DNA of 64,000 nt, from NCBI GenBank assembly GCA_965242525.1, contig OZ251459.1:2137515-2201514 (forward strand), written 5' to 3'. The stretch is from an uncultured Candidatus Binatia bacterium (GTDB lineage: Bacteria > Desulfobacterota > Binatia > UBA9968 > JAJDTQ01). Positions 5,874 to 51,905 of the stretch are shown here, in pieces (position 1 is the first letter of the stretch; every line of letters starts with the position of its first letter). The notes below the pieces were generated by a model that ran no database searches, was not told the DNA's origin, and saw only the letters and a list, made by a program, of their open reading frames with translations. The translations under genes were made by a program, and so were the position numbers.

Positions 5874-6923
<1,050 letters not shown>

Positions 6924-9130: not shown

Positions 9131-9157
9131 CAAACGTCAATACATCGTATTGACGTT
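9131..9157. promoter_or_regulatory. perfect 11-bp inverted repeat AAACGTCAATA-N5-TATTGACGTTT, candidate operator of the downstream RHH gene
   Basis: Read directly: caAAACGTCAATAcatcgTATTGACGTTTac, about 30 nt upstream of the RHH-protein start. Confidence 0.5.
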
Positions 9158-9185
9158 TACCCGTGTTTCCTGTATCCAACTCATC

Positions 9186-9677
9186 GTGGCGAAGACTGGA
9201 CAGTTGCAGGTTCGCGTCAGTGCGGACGAGAGGGAGCGTATCAGGCAGCGCGCGGAAAACGCGGGCATGACCGTATCCGAATGGGTGCTCAGGCAGTTGC
9301 TGCCGCCCGTCGAGGATGAGTTCCAGGGGCTTTGCCTCGGTCTTGCGGAGCGGCCCGAATTCCGCACCCACGCCCTGGCCCATCTCCATGACTTCTTCCG
9401 GCGTCTGGGCGAACGGGAATTCTCCCTGGCCGTGCGGTACCCGCCGCAGGTGGAGTTGGCGCCGTTCGAGGCAAATTACGTGGCGGCGATGGTGGAGTAC
9501 GCCGCGGTCCTCAAGGGGGCGCCGATGCCGGATTGGACCCGGGACGTGCCGCCCCTGGAGACGCCCTGGTTCGCCGCCCCCGAACGGAGCTTGCGGCTGC
9601 ATCTGCTCACGCAGTCGCCGCCGCCGTTCCGCCGGCGCAACCTGTTCGTGGACGCCAGCGTCGGGAGCCGGGCATGA
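9186..9677 (+). CDS. ribbon-helix-helix (CopG/Arc-like) DNA-binding protein, putative antitoxin/regulator
   Basis: 'AKTGQLQVRVSADERERIRQRAENAGMTVSEWVL' is a typical RHH beta-strand plus helices. The listed TTG at 9150 lies inside the palindrome, so GTG 9186 is a more plausible start. The stop overlaps the next gene as ATGA. Confidence 0.55.
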   Translation: MAKTGQLQVRVSADERERIRQRAENAGMTVSEWVLRQLLPPVEDEFQGLCLGLAERPEFRTHALAHLHDFFRRLGEREFSLAVRYPPQVELAPFEANYVAAMVEYAAVLKGAPMPDWTRDVPPLETPWFAAPERSLRLHLLTQSPPPFRRRNLFVDASVGSRA

Positions 9678-10368: not shown

Positions 10369-11961
10369 ATGCGCTTCTTCAACACGTCGGGCCCCGTGGT
10401 CGCCGAAGACCACTACCGCATCCCGCCGCTGCAACGGGTGGATCTGGGCGAGGTCCTGGAGTTGATCCGGAGCAAGCGCTACTTCGTGCTCCATGCCCCC
10501 CGACAGACCGGCAAGACCTCCGTCCTGCTCGCCTTGCGGGACCTGCTGAACAGCGGCGCGGAGGGGGATTTCCGTTGCGTTTACGGAAACGTCGAGGCCG
10601 GTCAGGCTGCCCGGGAGGACGTGGGAGAGGCCATGCGCGCCGTCCTGGGCGAACTGGCGTCCAGGGCACTATCCTTGCACGACGAGTTCCCGGACGGCGC
10701 TTGGCCCGACATCCTCGCAAGGTCGGGTCCCCACGGAGCTCTCGGAGAGACCTTGACCCGCTGGTGTCGGGCGGACCCTCGCCCTCTGGTGCTGCTCATG
10801 GACGAGGTCGATTCCCTGGTGGGCGACACGCTCATCTCCGTGCTCCGCCAGTTGCGCGCAGGCTACGACCGGCGTCCCGAGGAGTTTCCGCACAGCGTGG
10901 TGTTGTGCGGCGTGCGTGACGTGCGCGACTACCGCATCCGGTCGAGCTCGGAGAACGCGGTGGTGGCCGGGGGCAGCGCGTTCAACATCAAGGCCGAATC
11001 CCTGCGCCTCGGGGACTTCACGGAAGCCGAAGTGCGCGCGCTGCTCAGCCAGCACACCACGGAGACCGGGCAGGCGTTCACCCCGGCGGCGCTGGATGCG
11101 GTCTGGCGGCAGACCCGCGGGCAGCCGTGGCTGGTCAACGCGCTCTGCCACCAGGCCTGCTTCCGCAACGAGGCCGGGCGCGACCGCTCCCACGCCATCA
11201 CCCACGACGACGTCCTCGACGCCCAGGAACAACTCATCCTGCGCCGGGAGACCCACCTCGACCAACTCGCCGACAAGCTCCGGGAAGACCGCGTCCGCCG
11301 GGTGGTGGAGCCGCTGCTGACCGGCGGCGAGCCCCGGTACGGTTCGCGGGACCTGGAGTACGTGCGCGACCTGGGCTTGGTCACACGGGAGTCCCCGCCG
11401 CGCATGGCCAACCCCATCTACGCCGAGGTGGTGCCGCGGGAACTGTCCCACGTGGTCCAGGACAGCCTGGAACAGGAAGTGGCCTGGTACGTGGACGCCG
11501 AGGGCGGCCTCGACATGGACAAGCTGCTCGCCGCCTTCCAGACGTTCTTCCGGGAACACTCGGAACACTGGCTGGGGCGCTTCGACTACGCCGAAGCCGG
11601 TCCGCAACTCATCCTGCAGGCATTCCTCCAGCGGGTCGTGAACAGCGACGGCCGCGTCGAGCGGGAATACGGCCTGGGAAGGGGACGAACCGACCTGCTC
11701 ATCCTCTGGCCCCGGAAAGGCCGGGAAGCACCGGAACCCGCCGTGGACAAGTTCGTCATCGAGTGCAAGGTCCTGCACAAGAGCCTGGAGCAGAGCATCC
11801 GCGAAGGCCTGGAGCAGACCGCGGGCTACATGGACCGTTGCGCCGCCCAGGCCGGCCACTTGGTGGTCTTCGACCGAAACCCGGACAGGCAGTGGGACGA
11901 AAAGATCTTCCGCCGGGACGAGTCCGTGGACGGGCGGGCGGTTACCGTGTGGGGGATGTAG
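10369..11961 (+). CDS. predicted AAA-ATPase (PF09820-like) with C-terminal PD-(D/E)XK nuclease-like domain (DUF1703-like)
   Basis: N-terminal 'MRFFNTSGPVVAEDHYRIPPLQR...FVLHAPRQTGKTS' and C-terminal 'GRTDLLILWP...KFVIECKVL' (D..E.K). A paralogue lies at 53841..55439. Confidence 0.75.
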   Translation: MRFFNTSGPVVAEDHYRIPPLQRVDLGEVLELIRSKRYFVLHAPRQTGKTSVLLALRDLLNSGAEGDFRCVYGNVEAGQAAREDVGEAMRAVLGELASRALSLHDEFPDGAWPDILARSGPHGALGETLTRWCRADPRPLVLLMDEVDSLVGDTLISVLRQLRAGYDRRPEEFPHSVVLCGVRDVRDYRIRSSSENAVVAGGSAFNIKAESLRLGDFTEAEVRALLSQHTTETGQAFTPAALDAVWRQTRGQPWLVNALCHQACFRNEAGRDRSHAITHDDVLDAQEQLILRRETHLDQLADKLREDRVRRVVEPLLTGGEPRYGSRDLEYVRDLGLVTRESPPRMANPIYAEVVPRELSHVVQDSLEQEVAWYVDAEGGLDMDKLLAAFQTFFREHSEHWLGRFDYAEAGPQLILQAFLQRVVNSDGRVEREYGLGRGRTDLLILWPRKGREAPEPAVDKFVIECKVLHKSLEQSIREGLEQTAGYMDRCAAQAGHLVVFDRNPDRQWDEKIFRRDESVDGRAVTVWGM

Positions 11962-11994
11962 ATATCGAGAGGTCAACACAATGACCGACAGGTA

Positions 11995-12023
11995 TTGACA
12001 CTTCACGGAGTATGGAGTATAGG
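11995..12023 (+). promoter_or_regulatory. sigma70-like promoter of the low-GC operon: -35 TTGACA, 17-nt spacer, -10 TATAGG
   Basis: ggtaTTGACActtcacggagtatggagTATAGGcc sits immediately at the GC-content drop. It is followed by an AGGAG Shine-Dalgarno (12060-12064) and an in-frame GTG at 12072. Confidence 0.45.
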
Positions 12024-12071
12024 CCCCGACTAACTGATGCTTGGCCGCTTTCCCATGACAGGAGTTGTACC

Positions 12072-13106
12072 GTGACAGAACACCACAAAATGCTCGAGGT
12101 GAATCAAATTGACTTCGACACTGAAAATCCCAGGATAAAAATGGCGTTGGAGAAATACGGTAGCCGTCTGAATGCCGAGCGCATTCATTTTGCCTTGCGC
12201 TCCGCTACCGAAGGTTCCAGCGGTACTTCGTCCTACTCCAGCCTGAGAGATTCAATACGCTCTAGTCATGGGGTCATCGCGCCAATCATCGTAAGACCTA
12301 AAGGCCACAGCTACGTCTGCATCGACGGAAATACCCGCCTGGCGATCTACAAACAGTTTCAAAGAGAAGAAATAGAAGGAGATTGGAGCAAAATCAAAGC
12401 CATTGTTCTCGATCATGCCGAACAGCGCGATATCGAAACCGTCCGTGTATCGGCACACCTGGTTGGCGCCCGAGAATGGCCTGCCTACGAAAAGGCAAGG
12501 TATCTTCATTATCTCCGTAATCAGCAGTGTATGGATTACAGCGAAATGATAGCTCTCTGTGGCGGCAACAAAAACGAGATCGAACGTCAGATCGACGCAT
12601 ACCACGACATGAACTCATATTACCGAGATAAGGTGGACGACACCGCTTTTCGTATCGACCGTTATAGCGGATTCGTAGAACTTCAACGGCCGCAGGTCAA
12701 GCAAGCCATTTTTGACGCAGAATTGGACCTAGAGGATTTTGGCGAGTGGATCCGCGATGGCAAAATATACCGCTTGGAGGATGTCCGCAAGTTGCCGAAA
12801 ATCCTTCGAGACGATGAAGCCAAGCGGGTTTTCCTTGAAGGTGGACCTCGCTCAATAGAAGACGCCATGAAGGTTCTCGATCAGAGAACAGGGATCGGGG
12901 ACTCTACGGACAAGGGGCAGACCAGAGTAGAACATGCCACCATCTACGAACTCGCGGACGCGCTCAGCCGGCGAATCAATGACATGCCCTATTCGCAAGT
13001 ACGGGAATTGCGGGAGAAGACTGACGACGACACGGCAGATCAAATTACGCGATTAGAAGATCTATCCGTCAGGCTACGTAATTTGCTGAACGATGTCACA
13101 GAGTGA
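12072..13106 (+). CDS. ParB/Srx-superfamily (DGQHR/DndB-like) protein, paralogue 1
   Basis: 'IAPIIVRPKGHSYVCIDGNTRLAIYKQF' fits the ParB N-terminal domain pattern (PI.VR...Y..IdG.hR..A). The listed ORF start 12012 lies upstream of the predicted -10, so SD+GTG at 12072 is preferred. The 3' end overlaps the next gene by 14 nt. Confidence 0.6.
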   Translation: MTEHHKMLEVNQIDFDTENPRIKMALEKYGSRLNAERIHFALRSATEGSSGTSSYSSLRDSIRSSHGVIAPIIVRPKGHSYVCIDGNTRLAIYKQFQREEIEGDWSKIKAIVLDHAEQRDIETVRVSAHLVGAREWPAYEKARYLHYLRNQQCMDYSEMIALCGGNKNEIERQIDAYHDMNSYYRDKVDDTAFRIDRYSGFVELQRPQVKQAIFDAELDLEDFGEWIRDGKIYRLEDVRKLPKILRDDEAKRVFLEGGPRSIEDAMKVLDQRTGIGDSTDKGQTRVEHATIYELADALSRRINDMPYSQVRELREKTDDDTADQITRLEDLSVRLRNLLNDVTE

Positions 13107-13536
13107 AACACACAGAAACCTGGTCCTCCAGGTCGCAAGAGCAATTGAGGACCGTTATGCCCAAATATCCGTCATTACCGATTTGCAGCAGAACCCTGGA
13201 GATACAGTGCCACCAATGATCTGCGGCCACCGCCCTGATGTTTACGCCTACGAAGAAGTACAGCGCCTCTGCATCGTTGCAGAGGCCAAGACCGATTCGG
13301 ACCTCGACAATCTTCATACGCAACGCCAGTTGATGGCCTTTATCAACTATCTTAGCGACAGAGAAAAGAGCTTGTTCATCTTGTCGGTAAAGGGCACCAA
13401 GTCCGACCACGGGAAGACTCTGCTGCGGTTCACTCATCGACTTCTGGCTGTAAAGAACGTGCCTCTTGAAATTTTCGATGGTCATGATTTCTGGTCCTTC
13501 AACCTACAGGACGAAACTACGTGGCATTTACTTTGA
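13093..13536 (+). CDS. small hypothetical protein with PD-(D/E)XK-like motif
   Basis: 147 aa. 'RPDVYAYEEVQRLCIVAEAKTD' gives a D..(E)AK arrangement typical of the restriction-endonuclease fold. The gene is translationally coupled on both sides. Confidence 0.4.
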   Translation: MSQSETHRNLVLQVARAIEDRYAQISVITDLQQNPGDTVPPMICGHRPDVYAYEEVQRLCIVAEAKTDSDLDNLHTQRQLMAFINYLSDREKSLFILSVKGTKSDHGKTLLRFTHRLLAVKNVPLEIFDGHDFWSFNLQDETTWHLL

Positions 13537-15020
13537 GAAAACCACCCAGCCTGGTGGCAAGACACGAAGCCTATGCCTATCAGCTCGATGCTTTAAGAGC
13601 CGTAAAGGCGCTTCCTTATGCCGCCATATTCCACGAGCAAGGGCTCGGTAAAACAAAGATAGCTATTGACTTGATGTTGCTGTGGCTATCCAATGACTTA
13701 GTGGACACTGTATTTGTGATTACAAAAAAGAGCTTGGTTCAAAATTGGTTTGATGAACTTACCTCTCACTCATACGTAACTCCTCGAATTCTTTCCGATA
13801 ACCGTCGCGAGAACAGCCTCGCACTAAACTCACCTGTATTGATCTATATTATGAACTACGAAGCAATCTCGGCAAATCTTCATTTGATCGAGGATTTTCT
13901 CATTACCTGTAGGGTTGGCGCAATCCTTGACGAAAGTCACAAGATCAAAAACCCGCAAGCAAGGGCATCGATCTGCCTTCACTCTATCGCCGACAAATTC
14001 TCGCGTAAGGTGATAATGACGGGAACGCCAGTGGCGAACCGTCCTTATGATCTTTGGTCGCAAGTCAAGTTTTTGGACGGAGGACAGTCTCTCGGGTCTT
14101 CTTTTGCTGATTTCAAAGCAACCTTTGATCTTCCCGGTCAGCCAAGTTGCACACAGGAATACAGTGAACGACTATCCAATATCATTGACAAGATTAGACA
14201 TTTCTCGGTGCGAGAGACAAAGCGTACCGTAGAATTGAGCCTACCCGACAAGACAATACTAACTCATTTCGTGAACATGGCGCCTCGCCAAGCGGTAATA
14301 TATGACTCCTACGTGACCGAAGCGGCCTACGAGATCAACCTTGGGGACGACCTGATTCTGGACAACGCCGAAGACATCCTGAAACGCCTGTTACGCCTGG
14401 TGGAGTGCGCCTCTAATCCTTTCTTGGTTGACAAGAGATACTCTGAGGTGCCAGGGAAGTTCTCCGAACTCTTGAAGCTTCTCCAGGAAATTGACTTACG
14501 AGCACATAAAGTGGTTTTGTGGACAGGGTTTGTTGATAATGTAGAATGGATAACTGCCCAATTGAAGGAGTTTTCGCCCTTGAAGGTTCATGGTCGTATG
14601 TCCATTGAGCAACGGAACCAGTCCATAAGCAGATTCAAAACCCACCAGAAACACCGTGTCTTTGTAGCCACGCCTGGCTCTGCAAAGGAAGGCTTAACTT
14701 TGACAGTAGCCAATCATGCTGTTTTCTACGATCGAAGCTTCAGTCTTGATGATTACCTCCAGGCGCAAGACCGAATTCATAGAATCTCTCAAACTGAAGA
14801 CTGCTATGTACACAACTTGATCGCCAAACAAACCGTGGATGAGTGGGTGGATGCTTTGCTAAACGCAAAACATATCGCTGCACAGCTATCTCAAGGTGAT
14901 ATTTCTCAAGCTGAGTTTGAGTCTTCCTTTACCTTCAATTTAGCCGAAATACTGGCAGACATATTAACTTCCAGGTCGCTCGCTTCCAGGAGTCAGGAGA
15001 ACGGAAAATGGCCGAAATAA
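13521..15020 (+). CDS. compact SNF2/SWI2-family ATPase (helicase-like translocase)
   Basis: Walker A 'GLGKT', DExH-like 'ILDESHKIKN', motif III 'MTGTPVANRPYDLW', motif VI 'QAQDRIHRISQ'. A GTG start overlaps the upstream gene. Confidence 0.85.
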   Translation: MAFTLRKPPSLVARHEAYAYQLDALRAVKALPYAAIFHEQGLGKTKIAIDLMLLWLSNDLVDTVFVITKKSLVQNWFDELTSHSYVTPRILSDNRRENSLALNSPVLIYIMNYEAISANLHLIEDFLITCRVGAILDESHKIKNPQARASICLHSIADKFSRKVIMTGTPVANRPYDLWSQVKFLDGGQSLGSSFADFKATFDLPGQPSCTQEYSERLSNIIDKIRHFSVRETKRTVELSLPDKTILTHFVNMAPRQAVIYDSYVTEAAYEINLGDDLILDNAEDILKRLLRLVECASNPFLVDKRYSEVPGKFSELLKLLQEIDLRAHKVVLWTGFVDNVEWITAQLKEFSPLKVHGRMSIEQRNQSISRFKTHQKHRVFVATPGSAKEGLTLTVANHAVFYDRSFSLDDYLQAQDRIHRISQTEDCYVHNLIAKQTVDEWVDALLNAKHIAAQLSQGDISQAEFESSFTFNLAEILADILTSRSLASRSQENGKWPK

Positions 15021-16051
15021 AGATCCTCAAGGAATCGGTGCAGGTAGTCAAGGAAGACTATGTGCATATCTACGAACTGAAGTTCCTGAAAGACAACCCT
15101 CGCGTATACGCGTGTACACATGAGTACCCGAATTTCGATGACTTGATGGAAGAGCAACAGCAAGACGTCATTTTCGATAAACTAAAGGAAGAGACGAGCG
15201 TCAAAAATCTCCGTCCTGAGATAGAACGGCATGGGGGCCTTATGGAGCCGATACTGGTTCGGCTCGATACACGCCAAGTCATTGAAGGCAATTCTCGCCT
15301 CGCTGTATACCGCCTGCTGTACGAAGGGACGAGGGAGAGCGACTGGGAATATATTCCGTGCAGCATGGTAAGTGGGCTAACAGAGCGTCAACAGGCCGCT
15401 TTTCTCAACGAAGTCCATGTGAAGGGCAAGACTCAATGGTCCCCCTACGAAAAGGCCAACTTCGCCTATGTCCGCAGGGAACGAGGTTGGAGTCTCAGTG
15501 ACATCGCCGAACTTTTCGGAGAGTCAGTAAATACGATTAGAACCCGAGTAAAGGTCATTGAAACCATGAAAGGGAACTCGGATGGCACAAAATCTCATTT
15601 CAGTCATTACGATGTACTAGTTCGAATACCTGCTATAGAGAAGGAGCTTTCTCAAAATGACGAGCTGCGCAATCTTCTTTACGCGGAGATCAAGAAGATC
15701 GATCCCAGAGACGACAAGAGCGCGAATGAGGACGAAACTGGCGAAGAGGACGAAAGCGGTTTCACCGCGCAGGAACTCAGGAGGAAACTGCCCGCGATCA
15801 TCGAGAAACCTAAGGTTTTGCGAAAATATATCGAAGGTGAAATAGATTTGGACGAAGGCTACCAGCGTGCGAAGATCAGCAACGCGGAAACCCGAGTTCG
15901 GAAAGCAAAAGGACTTTTGGAGGACGTTTCTCGAGAAGAGGTGACAAGGCTCGAACAGAATCGCTTCAATGCGTTCAAACAGGATGTACGGAGGATATCC
16001 CGCGTAGTGGAGCGCCTCAATGAGATCACAAAGGACCGTGAGACACCATGA
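15008..16051 (+). CDS. ParB/Srx-superfamily (DGQHR-like) protein, paralogue 2
   Basis: 'MEPILVRLDTRQVIEGNSRLAVYRLL' parallels the motif in the 12072 gene. ATG 15008 overlaps the SNF2 stop (15020). The 3' end overlaps the next start as ATGA. Confidence 0.55.
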   Translation: MAEIKILKESVQVVKEDYVHIYELKFLKDNPRVYACTHEYPNFDDLMEEQQQDVIFDKLKEETSVKNLRPEIERHGGLMEPILVRLDTRQVIEGNSRLAVYRLLYEGTRESDWEYIPCSMVSGLTERQQAAFLNEVHVKGKTQWSPYEKANFAYVRRERGWSLSDIAELFGESVNTIRTRVKVIETMKGNSDGTKSHFSHYDVLVRIPAIEKELSQNDELRNLLYAEIKKIDPRDDKSANEDETGEEDESGFTAQELRRKLPAIIEKPKVLRKYIEGEIDLDEGYQRAKISNAETRVRKAKGLLEDVSREEVTRLEQNRFNAFKQDVRRISRVVERLNEITKDRETP

Positions 16052-17688
16052 TTCCGTACAATGTACTGCTAGTCGAGCCCGGATACTTCAACAAGTATCC
16101 GCCGCTTGGGTTAATGAAGTTGGCAGCATATCATGGCGCTCGCGGTCGTGGCGACCGGGTCCGCTTCGTCAAAGGTGAGGATCGTGAAGTGTCGCTGGAG
16201 TCGTGGGATCGAGTTTATGTAGCTACATTGTTCAGTTTTGAATGGGCGCGTACTGCCGCGGCAATTGATTTTGCCATCCGGACCGTGCGCGGCCAGACAG
16301 AACGGGTATTTGTAGGCGGCATCGCCGCATCGCTTATGCATGAGCACTTTGAGAACGAACCACGATGGTCGGGTGTCCGTTTTATTAAAGGACTATTGAC
16401 TGATCCGCCGGCAGTTGCGCTGCGTTTATCAGCAGAAGATTGTGATTTTGGCTTTGACGACCACCAGGGACCCCCTATCGAGGAGTTGATTCCAGACTAC
16501 TCCATTCTCGATCAGATCGAATATTCCTATCCTGTCCGAGACGCCTACTTTGGATACGCTTCACGTGGTTGCGTTCGGAAATGTGCGTTCTGTGGCGTTC
16601 CTAAACTGGAAGGCGCTCAGCGCGAAATGCCTTCCCTTACTTCCTTGGTCAAAGGAATCGAAGATGCATACGGACCCAAGAAGGACCTGGTGTTGATGGA
16701 TAATAACGTCACGGCATCCCTGCGATACAAGGAGATAATTGCTGAAATCCGGGATCTCGGCTTCACGCCAGGCGCTAGGCTCGAACGCAGTGGGCGACCG
16801 CCGATCAAGCGACGCGTGGATTTCAATCAAGGCGTTGACGCGAGGATTCTTGCCAAGTCCCCGCTCTTTCTTAGGGAAATGGCAAAAATCTGTATCAGTC
16901 CTCTTCGTATCGCCTTTGACCACCTTGGGGTACGAAAAGTATATGAGACTTCTGTTCGAATGGCAGCACACCACGGAATCACCTCCTTATCAAACTATAT
17001 GCTCTATAACTTTATGGACACTCCCGCAGATCTATACGACCGCATGCGTTTGAATATTACCCTCAATAACGACTTGGGCATCCGTATTTGGTCATTTCCG
17101 ATGCGTTATCAGCCAGTCTATCTCAAGGACCGTTCCCACGTAGGCAAAAATTGGACGAGATACCAACTACGCTCCTTTCAGATTATGCTGCAGGCGACTC
17201 GAGGGGTTGTTAGCGGCAACCCTTCCTTCTTCATGCGGGCTTACGGAGAAGACAAACGCGACTTCGAACAACTTTTGAGTTTGCCACATGCTTTCATTTT
17301 TCACCGTGATTACTACGAGAGAGGACCAGGACGAGGCATCCGAGATGACTATGAGACGGCACGACGGCGCCTTTCCAAGTCTCAAGAACAGGAATTGCTT
17401 GGTTTGCTGGAAGGCTCGGACAGTGTACCGGGTTTTCGAAGGGATCGGCTTCGCTCTTTGGTAGCCGACCCTGGCATTGACACATCTATTCGTAGAGTCA
17501 TTCGATTTCACTTGCTGGATACAAAAGAGAAACCGCAGAACCCCATTCTGCCGCTCTTCCCCGACCTTAATCCTGATCCAGCTTTCCCTGACGACGATGA
17601 ACTTGTCGAGGACGCCGGACTCTTTGATCACGAACACGCCTTGGAACAATCTGAAAAGGCCATCAAAGGAAACCATCATGGTCAATGA
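16048..17688 (+). CDS. radical SAM enzyme with N-terminal cobalamin(B12)-binding-like domain (class B radical SAM-like)
   Basis: CX3CX2C in 'YASRGCVRKCAFCGV'. The N-terminus 'VLLVEPGYF..YPPLGLMKLAAYHGARG..VRFV' resembles the B12-binding domain of class B radical SAM proteins. Confidence 0.75.
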   Translation: MIPYNVLLVEPGYFNKYPPLGLMKLAAYHGARGRGDRVRFVKGEDREVSLESWDRVYVATLFSFEWARTAAAIDFAIRTVRGQTERVFVGGIAASLMHEHFENEPRWSGVRFIKGLLTDPPAVALRLSAEDCDFGFDDHQGPPIEELIPDYSILDQIEYSYPVRDAYFGYASRGCVRKCAFCGVPKLEGAQREMPSLTSLVKGIEDAYGPKKDLVLMDNNVTASLRYKEIIAEIRDLGFTPGARLERSGRPPIKRRVDFNQGVDARILAKSPLFLREMAKICISPLRIAFDHLGVRKVYETSVRMAAHHGITSLSNYMLYNFMDTPADLYDRMRLNITLNNDLGIRIWSFPMRYQPVYLKDRSHVGKNWTRYQLRSFQIMLQATRGVVSGNPSFFMRAYGEDKRDFEQLLSLPHAFIFHRDYYERGPGRGIRDDYETARRRLSKSQEQELLGLLEGSDSVPGFRRDRLRSLVADPGIDTSIRRVIRFHLLDTKEKPQNPILPLFPDLNPDPAFPDDDELVEDAGLFDHEHALEQSEKAIKGNHHGQ

Positions 17689-19186
17689 AGCAAGTGCTAT
17701 GACGACGACGACACGGCAGTCACTTGACTCGATTGGCAGCGACATTCTCAACCTAATTACCCTTGGAATGTACAATAACCCTCTTGCCATCTATCGCGAG
17801 TACATCCAAAACGCTGCGGATGCGCTTGCACGTTCTGGAAGTCGCACTGACGGCCAAGTGGCAATCCATTTTGACAAGTCCGCATCGTCCATAACGATTC
17901 GAGACACCGGACCAGGCCTATCACCGAAGTCCGCAAGACGCGCACTTTTGCCCATTGCCAAGAGCGAAAAGGAATTCCAGGCTGAACGCGGTTTTCGCGG
18001 CATCGGTCGCTTGTCCGGACTGGCTTTCGGCAAATCCGTCACCTTTCTTACGCGAGCACGAGGAGACCAGCCAGCAACAAGTGTCAAATGGGACGGACTG
18101 AAACTTCGGACAAACATTGACCAGCGCAAACCGATTGAACGGGTACTCAAGGAAGCTGTTACGGTAGAACCGCTAACAAGACCAGATTTCCCGCCACACT
18201 TCTTCGAGGTCCAAGTGAACGGTATCGCGCGACACGCAGCGGGACTGATACTCAATCGAGACGCGGTCCGGACGTACATTGGCGAAGTATGTCCTGTCCC
18301 TATTTCCCGATCCTTCCCCTTTGCAACCCGGATCCTCGCTTTATTCCAAGCGGAAGCTCCTTTATTCGCGCTGAACCTTGTCTTGGATGGCACCCCCGGC
18401 CCTGTCACACGCCCCTTTGACGACGCGATTCGATTTTCGGATGACAAGCTAGACAAGTTCACGGAGTTTCAGGAAATCAGGATCCCATCGGTAGACCGAG
18501 AAGGACATGCGGCAGTTGGCTGGATTGCACATTCAAATTATTTGGGCGCTATTCCCAAGGAACACGCCATTCGAGGTGTTCGAGCACGTGCGGGCAACAT
18601 ACAGATTGGGAACGAAGCTGTCTTTGATCACCTTTTTTCTGACGATCGCTTTAATCGCTGGTGTGTTGGCGAACTCCATATCATGGACTCGCGTATCATC
18701 CCCAATGCTCGCCGTGACTACTTTGAGCCGGGTCCACACATCCGAAACCTGGAGAACCAGCTTATCGCTGTATTTCGAGAAGTAGTTGCGCGATGCAGGA
18801 AGGCATCCGCAGAACGCAACAGGGAACGAAGGTTGCAGTCCGGATTGCGGGAAATCGAGGATGCTTATCACTTGGCACAATCCGGCTATTTGTCCATGGG
18901 AGATTCTCAAGCCTTGATCGCGCGCGGTCTCAACCGTCTCCAAGACTTCCGGAACAACTGGAGCGAGATGAACGCCTGTGCAAAGACGGAATTGGAAAAC
19001 CTTGAATCGAACCTTCAAAAATTCCAGCCTTCACATAGTCATCTACCCGTGGCTAATTTGTCAAAGTTGGAAGCGGCAACGTACAGAAAGCTTTTTCACG
19101 CTTTGGTAGAGACGTCCCCTTCCCCGCGCATTGCCAAAGAAACAATCGAAGCTGTCCTTGTCCACCTACAGCGCAGGGTCGCATGA
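17678..19186 (+). CDS. MORC/MutL-like GHKL (HATPase_c) ATPase
   Basis: Bergerat-fold boxes: N-box 'REYIQNAADAL', G1 'ITIRDTGPGL', G2 'FRGIGRLSGLAFG'. ATG 17678 overlaps the radical SAM stop (17686-17688). Confidence 0.75.
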   Translation: MVNEASAMTTTTRQSLDSIGSDILNLITLGMYNNPLAIYREYIQNAADALARSGSRTDGQVAIHFDKSASSITIRDTGPGLSPKSARRALLPIAKSEKEFQAERGFRGIGRLSGLAFGKSVTFLTRARGDQPATSVKWDGLKLRTNIDQRKPIERVLKEAVTVEPLTRPDFPPHFFEVQVNGIARHAAGLILNRDAVRTYIGEVCPVPISRSFPFATRILALFQAEAPLFALNLVLDGTPGPVTRPFDDAIRFSDDKLDKFTEFQEIRIPSVDREGHAAVGWIAHSNYLGAIPKEHAIRGVRARAGNIQIGNEAVFDHLFSDDRFNRWCVGELHIMDSRIIPNARRDYFEPGPHIRNLENQLIAVFREVVARCRKASAERNRERRLQSGLREIEDAYHLAQSGYLSMGDSQALIARGLNRLQDFRNNWSEMNACAKTELENLESNLQKFQPSHSHLPVANLSKLEAATYRKLFHALVETSPSPRIAKETIEAVLVHLQRRVA

Positions 19187-19199
19187 GAGGAAACGGCGT

Positions 19200-20684
19200 T
19201 CAGAGTTTCTCTACGCGGCTTGCCCTCGAACGCAGAAAGTTGAAATCGGCGTCGTCACCGACATCCGGCATCGCGAGCAAGCGTTCGATAAAAGTCTCCG
19301 GCTGACGCTGCTTCCGCTGTGTCTTCAAGCCGCCCCGCCATTCCAGCAGGACGACTTCTTCTCGAAGCTGTTCGCCGGTCACCGTCGAAGGGCGTGTCCG
19401 AAAGAGGTCGATGCCCATGACCCGGTAGTGCAACGACCGGGCCAAGTCGGCCAGGAGTCGGCCCGTGGGGATACGGACCCGCAGATACGACGCCTGGTCG
19501 CCGACCACGTAGGCGAGCCTGGCCCCCGGCTTGAGGACGGCGCGGAGCGACGCGAGGTGTTTCGCCATGCCGCCGAAGTAGAGCCGCGTGACGCGCGGAT
19601 ACAACCGCTCGAAGCCGGAGGTCTTGCCCAACTCGATACGGCGCTTCTCGATGGCTTCGGCGATGTCCCGTATCTCGGCATGGTCGGCAACCTCACGATC
19701 GTCCGTGTCCGCCTTATAGACGCCCCGGGTGTTGGACCGGATCAGGTTCCGTTTCATGGACCGCAATTCCTGCCGGTCGCGCACCAGTCCCAGGATGACG
19801 GACTCCAACCGTGTGGTGCGCGTGTAGTCCTTTTCGTTGGGATACGGCGGGGAGGTGATCACGGTATCGACGGACCCCGGCTCCAGCGCTCGATGGATCG
19901 CGCGGGCGTCCGCCTCCACGACCCGGGACGGCGCGTCCGTCCGGCCCTTGAGGAGTTCCAGGTCGCCGACGATGGTTCGGAAGCAGTCGAGCCAGGCGTC
20001 GACGGCCGGCGCGTCGTCCTTGATCCGGCCCACGCCGACTTCGGGACCGAACTTCAGGTTCCCGATGCGCAGCACCAGCGCGTTGGCAAGCGCCAGGCGG
20101 CCATAGGGCCGCAGTTGCGGCCGGTCGTGCCGGTCCATGGCGTCCAGCAGGGTCAGCGTCTTGTGGAGGGGCAGCGGACTGATGGAGTCCTTCAGCAGCA
20201 GTTTCGACCGGTCGGGGGGAAGACCCTGCAACACGGGTGGTCCGCTCCCGTTCGCGGCGAAGAGCGGAAGCCCCGCGGCCTCCCGGATGCCCTGCCGTTC
20301 CAGCGTCCTTCGCGCCGCCGCCGCAACCCGACGGGAATAGTCCGAAAGCGCCGCCGGGTCGGCCGACCAATCGACCTTCACCGAACTCGCAAAAGACCCC
20401 ATGGGGTTCGACTCGACGCCCACGCTGGGAATGCCGAGTTTCTTGCACTCCACCAACGTCGTGCCCGTGCCGCAGAAGGGGTCCAGGACCGTATGGGAGC
20501 GGTCCACGCCGAGCCGTTCCATGTAGTCCCTTACCAAGTGGGGCGGGAACGACAGGACGAACCGATACCATTGATGGGCCGGACGGTCTTCAGGCCGCAG
20601 CCTGTTCCGGTCGCCTTGGGTTCCGCCGGTGTCGGCAACCGCGGCCCGGCCGCTGCGCGTATCGGAAATCAGATCCGCCATCGG
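19200..20684 (-). CDS. SAM-dependent amino-methyltransferase, probably a DNA N6-adenine/N4-cytosine methyltransferase
   Basis: Motif I 'LDPFCGTGTTLV' and motif IV 'ITSPPYP' are separated by ~215 aa. The likely start is 'MADLISD' at 20684. The gene is convergent on the low-GC operon (stops 13 nt apart). GC is host-like. Confidence 0.55.
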   Translation of the reverse strand, partial: PMADLISDTRSGRAAVADTGGTQGDRNRLRPEDRPAHQWYRFVLSFPPHLVRDYMERLGVDRSHTVLDPFCGTGTTLVECKKLGIPSVGVESNPMGSFASSVKVDWSADPAALSDYSRRVAAAARRTLERQGIREAAGLPLFAANGSGPPVLQGLPPDRSKLLLKDSISPLPLHKTLTLLDAMDRHDRPQLRPYGRLALANALVLRIGNLKFGPEVGVGRIKDDAPAVDAWLDCFRTIVGDLELLKGRTDAPSRVVEADARAIHRALEPGSVDTVITSPPYPNEKDYTRTTRLESVILGLVRDRQELRSMKRNLIRSNTRGVYKADTDDREVADHAEIRDIAEAIEKRRIELGKTSGFERLYPRVTRLYFGGMAKHLASLRAVLKPGARLAYVVGDQASYLRVRIPTGRLLADLARSLHYRVMGIDLFRTRPSTVTGEQLREEVVLLEWRGGLKTQRKQRQPETFIERLLAMPDVGDDADFNFLRSRASRVEKL

Positions 20685-20745
20685 AGTTCCTGGCCGAACG
20701 GGTCGAGGGAGTCCAGCCTTTCCATGGCAACACGTGCGAGAACCG

Positions 20746-21459
20746 TCAGTCCACCGGAACGCAGGTGACCTCCACCCGTCCGTCACCGTGCAGTCGAACC
20801 GCGTTGACCGTGCCGGCGTAGGTCGGAGACCCCGAGTAGTAGGCGGGCACCCCGTCTTCGCCCACGCGCACGGCGCGGTTCCAGTGGCCCAGAGCCACGT
20901 AGTCGGCGCGGCTGGCGGCCAAGTTCTCCTGCCGGATCAGCCACGAGCCCAGCAGCAGGCCCGCCCGGGGCGCGTCCTCCACGTAATGGCCGTGGGCCAC
21001 CGCCAACTGCCAGCGGGTGCGCCGCTCGGGCGGCTCGGGCAGGGGCATCATGTCCAGGTAGTCCACGTGGGGACGGCCCCATACCTCCAGGTCCAGCTCG
21101 GGGAAGCCGCTCCGGTCCTCGGTGAGGCCCAGCACGCGCACGTTACCCGCGCCGGCGAACTCGGACCGGCGATAGACCGAATCAGGAGTCAGGGGGTCGT
21201 GGTTGCCCGGCAGGACCACGATGGGGAGGCCGGAGTCGGCCATGACTCCGGCCGCGTCCTCGATGAACCGGGGACCCTGGCGGTTGTGGTCGAAGGTGTC
21301 CCCCGCCAGGATCACCAAGTCGGCGCCCTGGGCGCTCGCAATCGAGAGCACCTGTTGCAGCACCGGCAGGTTGCCGGAATCGTCTTCGTTCAGGACGCTG
21401 TCCGCGCCCAGGTGGAGGTCCGATGTGTGGACGACGAGGACTTCACGCGGTGCGTTCAT
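20746..21459 (-). CDS. calcineurin-like metallophosphoesterase (SbcD/Mre11-like fold)
   Basis: 'VLVVHTSDLHLG', 'LVILAGDTFDH', 'VVLPGNHD' metallophosphoesterase motifs. Likely start 'MNAPREV' with AGGGAG upstream. It lies directly upstream of the methyltransferase on the same strand. Confidence 0.7.
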   Translation of the reverse strand: MNAPREVLVVHTSDLHLGADSVLNEDDSGNLPVLQQVLSIASAQGADLVILAGDTFDHNRQGPRFIEDAAGVMADSGLPIVVLPGNHDPLTPDSVYRRSEFAGAGNVRVLGLTEDRSGFPELDLEVWGRPHVDYLDMMPLPEPPERRTRWQLAVAHGHYVEDAPRAGLLLGSWLIRQENLAASRADYVALGHWNRAVRVGEDGVPAYYSGSPTYAGTVNAVRLHGDGRVEVTCVPVD

Positions 21460-25856: not shown

Positions 25857-27011
25857 ATGGAACCCTTCTCGCTCTACGTCCACATCCCCTACTGCGTCAG
25901 CAAGTGCCCCTACTGTGACTTCAACTCCCACGTGGCCGCCCGCATCCCCGAGGGGGAGTACACCGGCGCCGTGGCCCGGGAGCTGCGCCATCATGCCGGT
26001 TCGGAGCGGTGGGCCAACCGGTCCGTCAGGACGGTCTTCTTCGGCGGCGGCACGCCTTCGACCTTCCACGGGGACAGCATCGCCGCGCTGCTCGACCAGG
26101 CCGCCGGGCTGTTCCGCTTCGAGGAGCGGATGGAGGTCACGCTGGAAGCGAACCCCGGGGCCGCGGACGCCGGCCGGTTCCGGGACTACCGGGGCTGCGG
26201 CGTCAACCGCATCAGCGTCGGCGCCCAGACCTTCGACCCCGGGCTGCTGCGGTTCCTCGGCCGCAGCCACGGGGCCGCGGAGACGCGCCGCGCGCTGGAG
26301 GGCGTCCGGGACGCAGGCTTCGACAACTTCAGCCTCGACCTGATCTACGCGGTCCCGGGGCAGACCGTGGACGGCGTGGACCGGGACCTCAAGCTGGCCC
26401 TGGAAAGCCGGCCGCCCCACCTGTCCGCCTACAACCTCACCATCGAGGAAGGGACGCCCTTCCACGCCCGCTACCGCCAGGGCCGGCTGCGCCCGCTGGA
26501 CGAAGAGACCGAGGTCGAGATGGCCCGGCGCATCGACCTCACCCTCGCCCGGGCCGGGCTGCGGCGGTACGAGATCTCCAACTACGCGCGCCCGGGCTTC
26601 GAATCGCGCCACAACGTCAACTACTGGGAGGGCGGCGACTACCTCGGCGTGGGCGCCGGCGCCCACAGCCATTACCGAAGGCCCGGAGACCCCCTGGGCG
26701 AGCGCTGGCAGAACGAGCGGTCCCCCGCGGCCTACATGCAGCGCACGCGCGAAGACGGCCACGCGGTCACCCAACGCGAGCGTCCGGGACCGCGCCAGGC
26801 CATGGCGGAACACCTGTTCACCGGGCTGCGGATGATCGAAGGGGTCCCGGTCCCCGCCTTCCGGCGCCGTTTCGGGACCACGCCCCGGGACGCTTTCCCC
26901 GCGGTCGGGGAGTGGCTCGGCGACGGCCTCCTGGCCGAAGAAGGCCAACGCCTCCGCTTCGCGCCCGAAGGGCTGCTGCTGGCGGACGAACTCTTCCTTC
27001 GACTCGTGTGA
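25857..27011 (+). CDS. hemW: radical SAM heme chaperone HemW / oxygen-independent coproporphyrinogen-III oxidase family
   Basis: 'LYVHIPYCVSKCPYCDFNS' CX3CX2C near the N-terminus and HemN/HemW C-terminal domain. Confidence 0.85.
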   Translation: MEPFSLYVHIPYCVSKCPYCDFNSHVAARIPEGEYTGAVARELRHHAGSERWANRSVRTVFFGGGTPSTFHGDSIAALLDQAAGLFRFEERMEVTLEANPGAADAGRFRDYRGCGVNRISVGAQTFDPGLLRFLGRSHGAAETRRALEGVRDAGFDNFSLDLIYAVPGQTVDGVDRDLKLALESRPPHLSAYNLTIEEGTPFHARYRQGRLRPLDEETEVEMARRIDLTLARAGLRRYEISNYARPGFESRHNVNYWEGGDYLGVGAGAHSHYRRPGDPLGERWQNERSPAAYMQRTREDGHAVTQRERPGPRQAMAEHLFTGLRMIEGVPVPAFRRRFGTTPRDAFPAVGEWLGDGLLAEEGQRLRFAPEGLLLADELFLRLV

Positions 27012-45677: not shown

Positions 45678-47024
45678 GTGGACGCGAGAGAACTGATCTT
45701 GCAGGACGTACGCTGCTTCCAGGACGAACAGCGTGGCCGCTTGCGGCCCGTCACGCTGCTCGTGGGCGAGAACAGTACCGGCAAGACGACCTTCCTGGGC
45801 TGTTACAGGGTGTTGCATGGGATGTTTTCCAATCCAGGGATCGGCGAATTCCTGGATTTCAACGGAGAGCCTTTCGTCATGGGTTCGTTCCGCGACATCG
45901 TCCGGTCACGACGCGGCCCGAGCGGCCGTATCGACGAGTTCAAGATCGGGGTCCGAGTCGATCGATCGCCAGACGACGTCATGTCACCGTGTGAGCTGTC
46001 GGTTGCTTTTCGCGAGAAAGGCTCGGAACCGGTGGTCTCGTCCTTGCGTTTCCAGTTCGATTCCGATGCGTTCCTAGAGATGAGTTCAGATGAGGAAGGA
46101 ACCATCGTGCAGATTCCAGGCCTTACCGAGCACGCCAAGGGTGTTCCGCTTGTTCGCACGATGGCCATGTTGGACTTCGTGATCCGCGATCCCGATTTTT
46201 GGGGAATGCCCCCCGGATGGTCAAACTTGGAAACCAGCTTCGAGTATCTCCATGGCCTGTTCTTCCGCCGAGGAGCCGCAAAGAGAAAACACACCGAACT
46301 TCAATGGCCTTTCGACGACGAGCTCCCGCGTTTGCCCGACCTGATTCCGGTCGCACCGCTTCGTTCCAAGCCCAAACGTACCTACGATCCGATACGCGAG
46401 ACCGCTTCCCCGGAAGGGGAACATGTCCCGATGCTGATGATGAGGCTGGATCGCACGGACACGCCGCACTGGAAATCGCTGCACAACGACCTCGTGAAGT
46501 TCGGCCAGGGTTCCGGGCTATTCGCCGACATCAAGGTGAAACGCCACGGCAAGCAGATGAGCGACCCTTTTCAGTTGCAGGTCAAGGTACGATCCGGACC
46601 TCATTCGAACCTCATGGACGTCGGTTACGGCGTCAGCCAGAGCCTGCCGATTCTCGTGGATGTGCTGAAAGGGTCCAGCAGCGGACGCAAGTGCGAGTTC
46701 CTGCTCCAGCAGCCGGAGGTTCACCTGCACCCTCGAGGCCAGGCGGAACTCGCCAGTCTGTTCGTCCAAGCGTTCAAGCAGAGTGGAAACCGGTTCCTGA
46801 TCGAGACCCACAGCGACTACATCATCGACCGCGTGCGCATTTCGGTCCGAAAAGGGCTGCTGAAGCCCGACGACGTGTCCCTTCTCTACTTCGAACCCAA
46901 GAGCAACGCCGTCGAGATCCACAACATGACCCTGGACGAGCATGGAAACCTCCTTGGCGCGCCGAGGGGATACCGTGACTTCTTCCTGAAGGAAACCGAC
47001 AGACTGCTGGGGTTCACGGACTGA
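45678..47024 (+). CDS. ABC/SMC-type AAA ATPase (AAA_15/AAA_21-like; OLD/PtuA/AriA-like ATPase)
   Basis: Walker A 'LLVGENSTGKTT', Walker B/D-loop 'FLLQQPEVHLHP', H-loop 'IETHSDYI'. Confidence 0.7.
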   Translation: MDARELILQDVRCFQDEQRGRLRPVTLLVGENSTGKTTFLGCYRVLHGMFSNPGIGEFLDFNGEPFVMGSFRDIVRSRRGPSGRIDEFKIGVRVDRSPDDVMSPCELSVAFREKGSEPVVSSLRFQFDSDAFLEMSSDEEGTIVQIPGLTEHAKGVPLVRTMAMLDFVIRDPDFWGMPPGWSNLETSFEYLHGLFFRRGAAKRKHTELQWPFDDELPRLPDLIPVAPLRSKPKRTYDPIRETASPEGEHVPMLMMRLDRTDTPHWKSLHNDLVKFGQGSGLFADIKVKRHGKQMSDPFQLQVKVRSGPHSNLMDVGYGVSQSLPILVDVLKGSSSGRKCEFLLQQPEVHLHPRGQAELASLFVQAFKQSGNRFLIETHSDYIIDRVRISVRKGLLKPDDVSLLYFEPKSNAVEIHNMTLDEHGNLLGAPRGYRDFFLKETDRLLGFTD

Positions 47025-47036
47025 GGGCCACCGAAG

Positions 47037-47516
47037 ATGTGCATCATCGTGGACGCCAACAAGCTCGATGTCTTTCTCGCCGACCCGGCCGACGAGAATT
47101 CCAGGCCGATACGCAGGTGGCTAAGTCAGGGCGCGGGGAGCATCGTGTATTCGACGGAAGGCAAGTTTGCGCAGGAGATCCGAGGTCGAGCCAAGGCCAA
47201 GCTGGCCGATTACGTTCGAGCCGGCAGAGCGAAGCACGTCCCCGCGAGCCTGTTCGCCGACGAAGAACGCAAGCTGGAAACTCACGCAGACCTCCGCTCC
47301 GATGATCCGCACGTGCTCGCGTTGGCGAGAGCGACCGGTGTACGTCTCCTGTACACCGCAGACGGGAAACTCACGTCGGACTTCAAGAACAAGAACATCA
47401 TCGACCGGCCGAGGGGCAAGGTTTATTCCGGCGCAGGCAATGCCAATCTGCTGACCCCCTCGGCATGTGCGTCGTCATGGCCAAGGTCTGCTTCGAAATC
47501 ATGGCCGACTTCATAG
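47037..47516 (+). CDS. PIN-like nuclease-domain protein (partner of the upstream ATPase)
   Basis: 'MCIIVDANKL' and 'DDPHVLALARATGVRLLYTADGKL' resemble PIN acidic motifs. It starts 13 nt after the ATPase stop. Confidence 0.4.
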   Translation: MCIIVDANKLDVFLADPADENSRPIRRWLSQGAGSIVYSTEGKFAQEIRGRAKAKLADYVRAGRAKHVPASLFADEERKLETHADLRSDDPHVLALARATGVRLLYTADGKLTSDFKNKNIIDRPRGKVYSGAGNANLLTPSACASSWPRSASKSWPTS

Positions 47517-47586
47517 ACACCGGCATCGCCGGGAACCTGAAGCGTCCGGGATCCAGCAATTGAGGACAGGATCGAGAAATCCGGCA

Positions 47587-49347: not shown

Positions 49348-49364
49348 AGGGGAGAGATTTCGCC

Positions 49365-49598
49365 ATGCTCACGTCCGCGATTACCTCGAAGGGCCGGACG
49401 ACGCTGCCCAAACCGGTTCGGGAGGCCCTTGGAGTGGGGGCCGGAAACCGTGTGCGCTACGTCATCCTCGACAACGAGGTTCGGGTTCTGCCCATGCGGC
49501 CCATCGGGCGGTTGTTCGGCGCACTGAAGCACGACGGCCCGCGGGTTACGGTGGAGGACATGGAACGCGCCATCACGGAAGGGGCGTGCGAGGAATGA
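49365..49598 (+). CDS. AbrB/MazE-family (SpoVT-AbrB fold) antitoxin-like protein
   Basis: 'SKGRTTLPKPVREALGVGAGNRVRYVI' is a swapped-hairpin barrel motif. Its stop overlaps the hsdS ATG. Confidence 0.65.
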   Translation: MLTSAITSKGRTTLPKPVREALGVGAGNRVRYVILDNEVRVLPMRPIGRLFGALKHDGPRVTVEDMERAITEGACEE

Positions 49599-50926: not shown

Positions 50927-51127
50927 GCCATCCCATGAAAAACCAATCGAAGTATTCCAGTTCCGAGACCATCGCCGAGACTTTTCGATATCTGGGACTT
51001 GACGATCCAAAACTGCGCAGTCGATTACGAGGGTTCTCCAAACCGGGGATATCGCCTCCTCGAGTCGAGAGACGCAGCAGCAAACTTGTCACTCGGAACA
51101 ACACCGCGCCAGATCAAGGAGACGATC

Positions 51128-51854: not shown

Positions 51855-51905
51855 TCGCCTTGGGGAATCGCAAAGCGGCGCTTCGGCAATCCCGGAGATG
51901 GTACA

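Follow-up and report, generated by a model that had tools for sequence, protein, structure and literature searches.

Two complex systems of DNA modification and restriction are known, Dnd (phosphorothioation) and Dpd (7-deazaguanine). Both are multi-gene cassettes that combine a ParB-family protein, DndB or DpdB, with a DNA-modifying enzyme and an SNF2-type helicase/nuclease. A cassette that partly resembles them lies in a 64,000-nucleotide stretch of contig OZ251459.1 from an uncultured Candidatus Binatia bacterium (assembly GCA_965242525.1, positions 2,137,515 to 2,201,514), the whole of which we refer to as the window. It contains a divergent radical S-adenosylmethionine (SAM) enzyme, hereafter rSAM, together with a GHKL ATPase, two ParB-like proteins, a small putative nuclease and an SNF2-family translocase. 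On our best reading, it belongs to the multi-gene DNA-targeting defence or modification-restriction systems. More specifically, and tentatively, since we place its probability somewhat below even, we propose an undescribed mobile cassette in which rSAM is the catalytic component: the host marks its own DNA, and motor and nuclease modules destroy DNA that is unmarked, much as in Dnd and Dpd.

Viperin, which makes 3'-deoxy-3',4'-didehydro (ddh) nucleotides, is one radical SAM enzyme of antiviral defence. Another is OpnA of Ophion, an experimentally validated anti-phage system composed of this radical SAM enzyme, a PHP protein and a phosphoribosyltransferase (PRTase) (bioRxiv 10.1101/2025.09.30.679545); the original prediction for this locus, which recognized viperins as the sole defence radical SAM enzymes, is thus outdated in this respect. 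The likeness of viperins and Ophion to the present case lies in a radical SAM enzyme that is essential to an anti-phage system. The window cassette contains no PHP or PRTase domains, and rSAM neither has the single-domain core of prokaryotic viperins (pVip) nor matches their PADLOC/NCBIfam model.

The cobalamin-dependent class B radical SAM enzymes of structural class I (TsrM, MgmA/QCMT, CysS, TokK and OxsB) share 10–17% identity with rSAM, which reaches none of the curated family models. These enzymes occur in natural-product, cofactor and methanogenesis contexts, whereas rSAM is part of a DNA-conflict cassette and has invariant residues of its own. AprD4, a radical SAM 1,2-diol dehydratase with an aminoglycoside substrate and a place in a biosynthetic cluster, shows no contextual likeness to rSAM. 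Prokaryotic MORC/paraMORC-type GHKL proteins of restriction-modification contexts provide a parallel for the partner gene, as they too are HATPase_c_3 ATPases found beside helicases and nucleases in conflict loci (PMC2292703). Radical SAM is not mentioned in that study (Iyer, Abhiman and Aravind 2008, PMC2292703; term count 0), and no description of the cassette was found in open-access literature text. In PADLOC-DB v2 (2023), rSAM matches no model, the GHKL and ParB-like proteins give weak matches, and a clear match is confined to the generic SNF2 domain (ZorD, DpdE). The cassette is a real, widespread and uncatalogued conflict cassette with an unusual enzymatic core, and it has apparently escaped description.

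Architecture of the cassette

The cassette comprises six co-directional genes within a low-GC insertion:

11960..19200, no strand assigned: low-GC insertion with the six-gene cassette, delimited by composition profiles
12012..13106, + strand: ParB-like protein 1, 364 residues, ParB N-terminal-type domain with NPR and GNTR motifs
13093..13536, + strand: small protein, 147 residues, PD-(D/E)xK nuclease-type motif (P48-D49...E64-x-K66)
13521..15020, + strand: SNF2-family DNA translocase, 499 residues, ATPase motifs intact
15008..16051, + strand: ParB-like protein 2, 347 residues, ParB N-domain plus helix-turn-helix (HTH)
16048..17688, + strand: rSAM, divergent two-domain radical SAM enzyme, 546 residues, intact ATG open reading frame of 546 codons
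17675..19186, + strand: GHKL (Bergerat-fold) ATPase, 503 residues, HATPase_c_3 at 9.6e-12

Composition profiles show that the insertion, about 7 kb long, has a GC content of 45–55% against ~69% for the genome, with sharp edges. On either side of it is a host-like gene, and the two converge, so that their 3' ends face the insertion. The ends of neighbouring cassette genes overlap by 4–16 nt, and we therefore regard the cassette as a single translationally coupled operon. The rSAM gene is the fifth of the six, its start overlapping the stop of ParB-like protein 2 (ATGA). Promoter and terminator scans at the locus gave results at chance level. The gene, its neighbours and its setting in a defence-like operon were confirmed as originally described, the fellow cassette members all being DNA-acting.

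A divergent radical SAM enzyme

The following regions were delineated in rSAM:

16048..16410, + strand: N-terminal Rossmann-like, B12-binding-like domain, about residues 1–120
16525..17307, + strand: radical SAM barrel core, about residues 160–420
16570..16593, + strand: C175-VRK-C179-AF-C182, the [4Fe-4S]/SAM cluster motif
17308..17685, + strand: variable helical C-terminal region

The protein belongs to the radical SAM enzymes. Its N-terminal domain is of the Rossmann (B12-binding-like) type, and its core has the partial TIM-barrel AdoMet radical fold of the superfamily. All 76 sequences in our alignments, which reach down to 31% identity, share the three cysteines of the CxxxCxxC motif (C175, C179 and C182). 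Ten further core residues are invariant and specific to the family (D218, N220, D258, N260, G262, D291, N321, P351, M352 and W369), as are the motifs DNN, DFNQGxD and R..FDH, which are peculiar to it.

The family stands apart as an outlier and is mostly overlooked by standard annotation. The Pfam radical SAM model PF04055 scores rSAM at 19.1 bits, below its curated cutoff of 29.5, and individual relatives at 19–28 bits. Two ordinary radical SAM genes in the window, encoding MoaA and a HemN-like protein (5874-6923 and 25857-27011), reach 124 and 87 bits; as they pass Pfam easily, the 19 bits of rSAM are highly atypical. Scans of rSAM against Pfam, NCBIfam and PADLOC returned sub-threshold matches only, with no PADLOC model matched, and in phmmer and profile hmmsearch runs against the PDB the match was confined to the region of the cysteine motif. 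No extra fused domains were recognized in the relatives of 650–820 residues.

A housekeeping class B enzyme was considered and rejected. The NCBIfam models of characterized class B enzymes (BchE, HpnJ, PhpK, MJ_0865/MgmA and the ladderane radical SAM enzyme) score rSAM at 12–16 bits against cutoffs of 360–600, and those of MiaB/RimO at 13.7–18.6 bits against cutoffs of 251–357. A methylthiotransferase of the MiaB/RimO type was rejected as well, there being no cysteine in residues 1–131 and no TRAM match; lacking cysteines, the N-terminal domain cannot hold an auxiliary [4Fe-4S] cluster. The original prediction would have failed had rSAM fallen into a housekeeping clade whose conserved context has nothing to do with this island. 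Neither was found: scores against BchE, HpnJ, PhpK, MJ_0865, ladderane and RimO models lie at 12–19 bits for cutoffs of 251–600, and the genomic context is conserved and specific to the cassette, as the fixed position of the GHKL gene described below illustrates.

The C-terminal end of rSAM (about residues 501–546; window 17548-17685) contains a disordered linker, residues 501–525, and an acidic segment, VEDAGLFD, at residues 520–527. Among close homologs, V520, E521, D522, G524 and L525 of this segment are invariant, and A523 and D527 are conserved in at least 90%. The segment looks like a candidate docking peptide for a partner protein.

The GHKL ATPase as an obligate partner

The GHKL gene directly follows rSAM in 80 of 81 loci, and the two are likewise adjacent in relatives at ~35% identity that have other partners. 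Pairwise divergence of rSAM correlates with that of the GHKL ATPase at a Spearman rho of 0.84, compared with 0.33 for rSAM and SNF2. The GHKL ATPase is therefore an obligate, co-evolving partner of rSAM. Its ExxxNxxD and DxGxG motifs are conserved at 97–98%. In a profile search against the PDB, its N-terminal domain was closest to HtpG/Hsp90 (HtpG, 7.6e-13), which sets it apart from the MORC/paraMORC type; the C-terminal ~350 residues are without assignment, and against PADLOC it gives E values of 0.008–0.02 only. With a mean pairwise identity of 0.69, as compared with 0.56 for SNF2 and 0.48 for GHKL, rSAM is the slowest-evolving of the three. Modification enzymes are usually the slowest-evolving part of their systems.

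Such strict pairing also raises the possibility that rSAM modifies a protein, most likely its GHKL partner or else another protein of the cassette or of the invader, and thereby acts as a maturase or as a switch that controls the nuclease and motor modules. Enzymes that do so elsewhere are the B12-dependent MgmA and Mmp10, whose substrate for methylation is methyl-coenzyme M reductase, and RimO, which modifies ribosomal protein S12; the structural closeness of rSAM to MgmA and RimO and its docking-like acidic C-terminal peptide would suit a role of this kind. However, the co-divergence of the pair is equally compatible with a complex bound to DNA, phage relatives of rSAM stand alone without a GHKL partner, and the DndB/DpdB-type protein directly upstream of rSAM in many cassettes indicates DNA. 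We consider protein modification unlikely.

Interchangeable motor and nuclease modules

A census of 82 rSAM loci revealed that the DNA translocase/nuclease modules attached to the rSAM-GHKL pair are interchangeable. The window's arrangement, with ParB, small protein, SNF2 and ParB upstream, occurs in 38 of the 82, while 18 have a ParB-SNF2 module downstream, 11 have NurA-HerA-GHKL upstream, and 8 have a DGQHR protein only. Three are accompanied only by an extra GHKL and 332-residue protein pair, and four by little or nothing else. The NurA and HerA assignments were obtained by hhalign against the annotated proteins of Marinitoga camini virus 1 (1e-23 and 5e-53, respectively). Further partners include PIN_8 with GHKL (PIN_8 at 5e-25) and NERD/AAA_19 and DEAD helicases. 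The fullest version, on plasmid pR132505 of Rhizobium leguminosarum WSM1325, encodes ParB1, small protein, helicase, ParB2, DGQHR protein, rSAM and GHKL, plus a convergent PIN and GHKL, and adjoins a VapBC toxin-antitoxin pair and an integrase.

The dependence between pair and module is asymmetric. All seven plasmids with a ParB2 homolog have rSAM nearby, and 35 of 37 metagenome contigs of at least 12 kb that contain the ParB-SNF2 module also contain rSAM-GHKL; rSAM-GHKL pairs without the module do exist. This asymmetry fits the logic of modification-restriction, in which restriction does not occur alone and modification can, but it falls short of decisive because of the two exceptional contigs (L215 and L246) and the small sample. 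On one of these (L246:7143-12958), a true DGQHR protein (VVDGQHRLW) comes after the module, together with a 276-residue protein, and an HNH + transmembrane protein lies upstream; the 276-residue protein, which takes the place of rSAM-GHKL there, has no detectable relatives.

A roaming pair, consisting of a second GHKL ATPase and a protein of ~332 residues, stands beside many cassettes in either orientation (L017, L029, L031, L034-L036, L041, L044 and L053; for example L031:17241-18239). The ~332-residue protein has no Pfam or PADLOC match, and the pair could be either a system in its own right or an accessory.

Shorter relatives of rSAM, of ~300–360 residues, occur in phages, among DNA methyltransferase and replication genes. 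The PHROG family phrog_9298, ‘radical SAM domain protein’ (~305 residues), is homologous to residues 5–370 of rSAM (E 7e-38) and has the same invariant motifs. It differs from rSAM in its N-terminal domain of ~80 residues, in having neither the C-terminal region nor a GHKL partner, and in standing alone in phage early/replication regions. Examples of the short relatives were found in Marinitoga camini virus 1 (L084:6995-10821), in Bacteroides phage LoVEphage (L085) and at two further loci (L090 and L091). In the temperate Marinitoga virus, the gene is a neighbour of HerA and NurA, an arrangement that mirrors the NurA-HerA variant of cells, and in LoVEphage its surroundings include C5 and Dam methyltransferases and a PAPS-reductase-like gene. 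No consistent neighbour was found for these short relatives, none exceeding 8 of 67 loci.

The remaining cassette proteins and their relation to Dnd and Dpd

The two ParB-like proteins are full-length paralogs (hhalign E 1e-38), and both have the ParB N-domain with GxxR motif, followed by an HTH, that places them in the ParB/Srx superfamily, with Pfam ParB_N remaining sub-threshold. ParB-like protein 1 matches ParB_N at E 0.0016 and phrog_3264, ‘ParB-like partition protein’, at 1.3e-8; N39-P40-R41 is conserved at 94% and G106-N107-T108-R109 at ~96%. ParB-like protein 2 matches phrog_1033, also a ‘ParB-like partition protein’, at 4e-10 and shows weak HTH matches at residues 148–183; N30-P31-R32 is conserved at 98% and E93-G-N-S-R-L-A99 at ~100%, and its Rhizobium ortholog is annotated as ‘ParB N-terminal domain-containing protein’. 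No close solved structure was found for either protein, and PADLOC gives weak PDC-M38A and PD-Lambda-5_A matches.

The small protein returned no match in scans of the Pfam, NCBIfam, PADLOC and PHROG libraries. Its motif is strongly conserved in 43 orthologs (P48, D49 and E64 at 100%, K66 at 97%), and this PD-(D/E)xK motif, along with a position overlapping the SNF2 start, suggests a putative nuclease. The SNF2 translocase matches Pfam SNF2-rel_dom (5e-30) and Helicase_C (5e-16) and, in PADLOC, ZorD (2e-47) and DpdE (5e-37), with GKT (Walker A), DE and QxxDRxHR (motif VI) conserved at 98–100%.

The resemblance to Dnd and Dpd thus extends to the DpdE match of the window SNF2 protein and, in relatives of the cassette, to a DndB/DpdB-type protein next to rSAM. 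DGQHR proteins encoded directly upstream of rSAM on pNL1 and rhizobial plasmids score 42.1 and 33.4 bits against the Pfam DndB model (threshold 29.1) and match PADLOC DpdB at 1e-17 and 7e-11. The ParB-like proteins of the window have no Pfam DndB match, and hhalign aligns them to the DGQHR clade through the core motif only; as the E values of 0.02–0.13 are marginal, assignment to the DndB family was rejected and membership is not claimed for the window locus. The difference from Dnd and Dpd lies in the presumed chemistry module, which here is the rSAM-GHKL pair, whose modification of DNA we infer. PADLOC and NCBIfam models gave no DpdA, DpdC or DndA/C/D/E match among the six window genes.

Nearest structures and the cofactor

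The Rossmann domain of rSAM has the fold and position expected of class B enzymes. The B12-binding model PF02310 touches 8 of 38 relatives and not the query itself, and CheY-like domains score comparably to B12-type domains for this region. T60-L61 and G90-G91, 28 residues apart, are near-invariant and resemble the classical SxL...GG cobalamin fingerprint, a likeness that is suggestive only. Among radical SAM enzymes that depend on B12, the cofactor is bound base-off with no protein ligand, and no common sequence motif is given (PMC12931638). The best structural match of rSAM is AprD4, at 14% identity, which has a B12-like domain and binds no cobalamin (PMC12931638). We put cobalamin use by rSAM at roughly even odds. 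Of the original designation as a cobalamin-binding radical SAM enzyme, the radical SAM core and the B12-binding-like domain stand, while cobalamin binding was assumed.

The match to AprD4 brings to mind a different role, in which rSAM would be the effector: a cobalamin-independent, AprD4-like enzyme that damages invader DNA or an essential molecule by H-atom abstraction, leading to strand scission, a cross-link or dehydration, with the ParB, GHKL and motor proteins having first picked out the target. Dedicated nucleases (PD-(D/E)xK, NurA and PIN) are already present in the cassettes, however, and would make a slow radical effector redundant; rSAM-GHKL pairs occur without motor or nuclease genes, and the T60-L61...G90-G91 pattern is reminiscent of the cobalamin fingerprint. 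An effector role is, in our view, distinctly unlikely.

The nearest structures have substrates ranging from small molecules (AprD4, TsrM, CysS and TokK) through proteins (RimO and MgmA) to RNA (MiaB), so the substrate of rSAM cannot be read from its fold. OxsB acts on deoxyadenosine phosphates, contracting the sugar, en route to the antiviral oxetanocin A. As OxsB is itself a B12-dependent radical SAM enzyme (PMC12931638), it anticipates part of what had originally been put forward as new biochemistry for the class: chemistry on nucleotides has a precedent, and chemistry on DNA itself would be new. Together with viperin and Ophion, OxsB lends some plausibility to rSAM making an antiviral nucleotide analogue or signal, with the rest of the cassette sensing infection or acting in parallel. 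The strong cross-phylum conservation of rSAM would suit a universal small-molecule substrate, and ParB-family proteins bind nucleoside triphosphates (NTPs) (PMC10853773). We nevertheless rate this alternative as rather improbable.

Distribution and mobility

Relatives of rSAM form more than 7,000 clusters at 90% clustering, with typical identities of 68–75%; almost none has a Pfam label and none a name. A profile search of 1.8 billion representatives returned 2,021 clusters at 50% identity, and 390 rSAM loci were located in species-representative genomes. Among the best 80 of these 390 loci, to which the host taxonomy and identity figures refer, the hosts include Terriglobia, Binatia, Latescibacterota, Nitrospirales, Dehalococcoidia, Alpha- and Gammaproteobacteria, Poribacteria, Gemmatimonadota, Acidimicrobiia and others, and rSAM is 64–75% identical across more than ten phyla. 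This level of identity between phyla, combined with the anomalous GC content, argues for recent horizontal transfer. Metagenome-assembled genomes of sponge symbionts are strikingly frequent among the hosts (Poribacteria, Candidatus Spongiihabitans, Poriferihabitaceae, Binatia, Dehalococcoidia, Nitrospirales and Latescibacterota), which suggests recent spread of the cassette within sponge microbiomes.

Orthologs at 55–66% identity are located on 12 plasmids, which include the conjugative plasmid pNL1 from Novosphingobium aromaticivorans as well as several from rhizobia. At least 495 rSAM relatives are present in IMG/VR, and the full cassette accompanies 13 of the best 80. The cassette has mobility-type neighbours (toxin-antitoxin, integrase and reverse transcriptase genes), and it moves between phyla, plasmids and proviruses.

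Plasmid locations and ParB-like proteins would also be expected of a cassette that is not defensive and serves the mobile element in partition, replication control or conjugative DNA processing, or serves host DNA repair. Such an assignment would sit well with the fact that no phenotype is known and that rSAM has no PADLOC match. In the window and in most genomes, however, the cassette is chromosomal without replicon genes, and the closest matches of its SNF2 protein are two defence helicases, ZorD and DpdE. Features typical of conflict systems are seen in the swapping of SNF2 plus nuclease, HerA-NurA, PIN and NERD-helicase modules and in the neighbouring toxin-antitoxin, integrase and defence genes. 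A function outside defence is therefore very unlikely.

Proposed mechanism

In the modification-restriction scheme that we favour, the GHKL dimer and the ParB-type proteins, as NTP-dependent DNA clamps, would hold rSAM on DNA. Through a SAM-derived 5'-deoxyadenosyl radical, possibly with methylcobalamin, rSAM would write a covalent mark on host DNA, the simplest guess being a C-methyl group. The SNF2 motor and the small nuclease, or HerA-NurA in variant loci, would track along and degrade DNA without the mark. The logic would be that of Dnd and Dpd with a different chemistry module.

Several observations weigh against this scheme. The window's ParB-like proteins are not demonstrably of the DndB/DpdB family, and a ParB-type protein is missing altogether from the NurA-HerA variant. 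In a DNA modifier with sequence specificity, one would expect a variable part for target recognition, yet conservation is uniform over the rSAM core. The two ParB-SNF2 modules on L215 and L246 lack the rSAM-GHKL pair, and the small-molecule, protein and RNA substrates of the nearest structures do not favour DNA. Cobalamin use is only putative, with AprD4 as the top match and a truncated N-terminal domain in the short phage relatives. Finally, no anti-phage phenotype is known for the cassette, and no PADLOC model matches rSAM.

A bolder form of the scheme holds that rSAM is cobalamin-dependent and, clamped by the GHKL and ParB/DndB-type proteins, writes an unprecedented carbon-centred self mark on DNA. 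This could be a C-methyl group at a base or sugar position beyond the reach of ordinary methyltransferases, serving as the self label of a new and widespread modification-restriction system that spreads above all in sponge symbionts, on rhizobial plasmids and in proviruses. We regard this version as speculative and unlikely as it stands.

If the cassette is a defence system, a large family that current tools have missed (more than 7,000 clusters, ~390 species-level genomes and more than ten phyla) would be added to the catalogue, and its high identity across phyla in sponge-symbiont genomes would clearly exemplify how immunity genes have recently spread by horizontal transfer in a host-associated community. 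If rSAM acts on DNA, an epigenetic or defensive chemistry new to DNA would have been found, this enzyme architecture would gain its first role directed at DNA, and new tools for site-directed C–H functionalization of DNA could follow. Complete cassettes on plasmids of cultured, tractable bacteria, namely pR132505 of R. leguminosarum WSM1325 and pNL1 of N. aromaticivorans, make these proposals directly testable.

Flanking genes and a second defence island

The wider flanks of the cassette are host genes (SecA, MoaA, molybdopterin genes, 2-oxoacid:ferredoxin oxidoreductase and HemN). Two genes abut it directly:

10369-11961, + strand: AAA ATPase with a C-terminal D...ECK nuclease-like motif, ending 50 bp before the cassette
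19200-20786, - strand: N6/N4 DNA methyltransferase (type II methyltransferase models, 4e-35), convergent and ending 13 bp from the GHKL stop

Both were rejected as cassette members, as their GC content at third codon positions is host-like and neither has a counterpart in any of 81 related loci; the cassette was therefore apparently inserted between their 3' ends. No tRNA gene, flanking repeats or integrase were found at the island boundaries. Just upstream of the AAA ATPase, in a slight GC dip at window 9150-9677, lies a NikA-like ribbon-helix-helix mobilization-type protein (7e-10), a possible vestige of an older mobile element in the same place.

A second lower-GC patch, at window 45678-53761, is a genuine defence island with the following genes:

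45678-47024: NsnB-like/PDC-M55A ATPase
47467-49347: Schlafen AlbA_2 plus HATPase_c_4 protein
49586-50926: type I restriction-modification specificity subunit
50999-51751: SDH-type ClpP-like protease
51906-53147: HEC-01 candidate system, component A (E 7e-160)
53066-53761: HEC-01 candidate system, component B/DUF4276 (E 7.5e-83)

An SDH-type ClpP-like serine protease like that at 50999-51751 also stands beside the rSAM cassette in one other genome (L003:13779-14627); its recurrence may be a coincidence or may reflect a recurrent passenger of defence islands.

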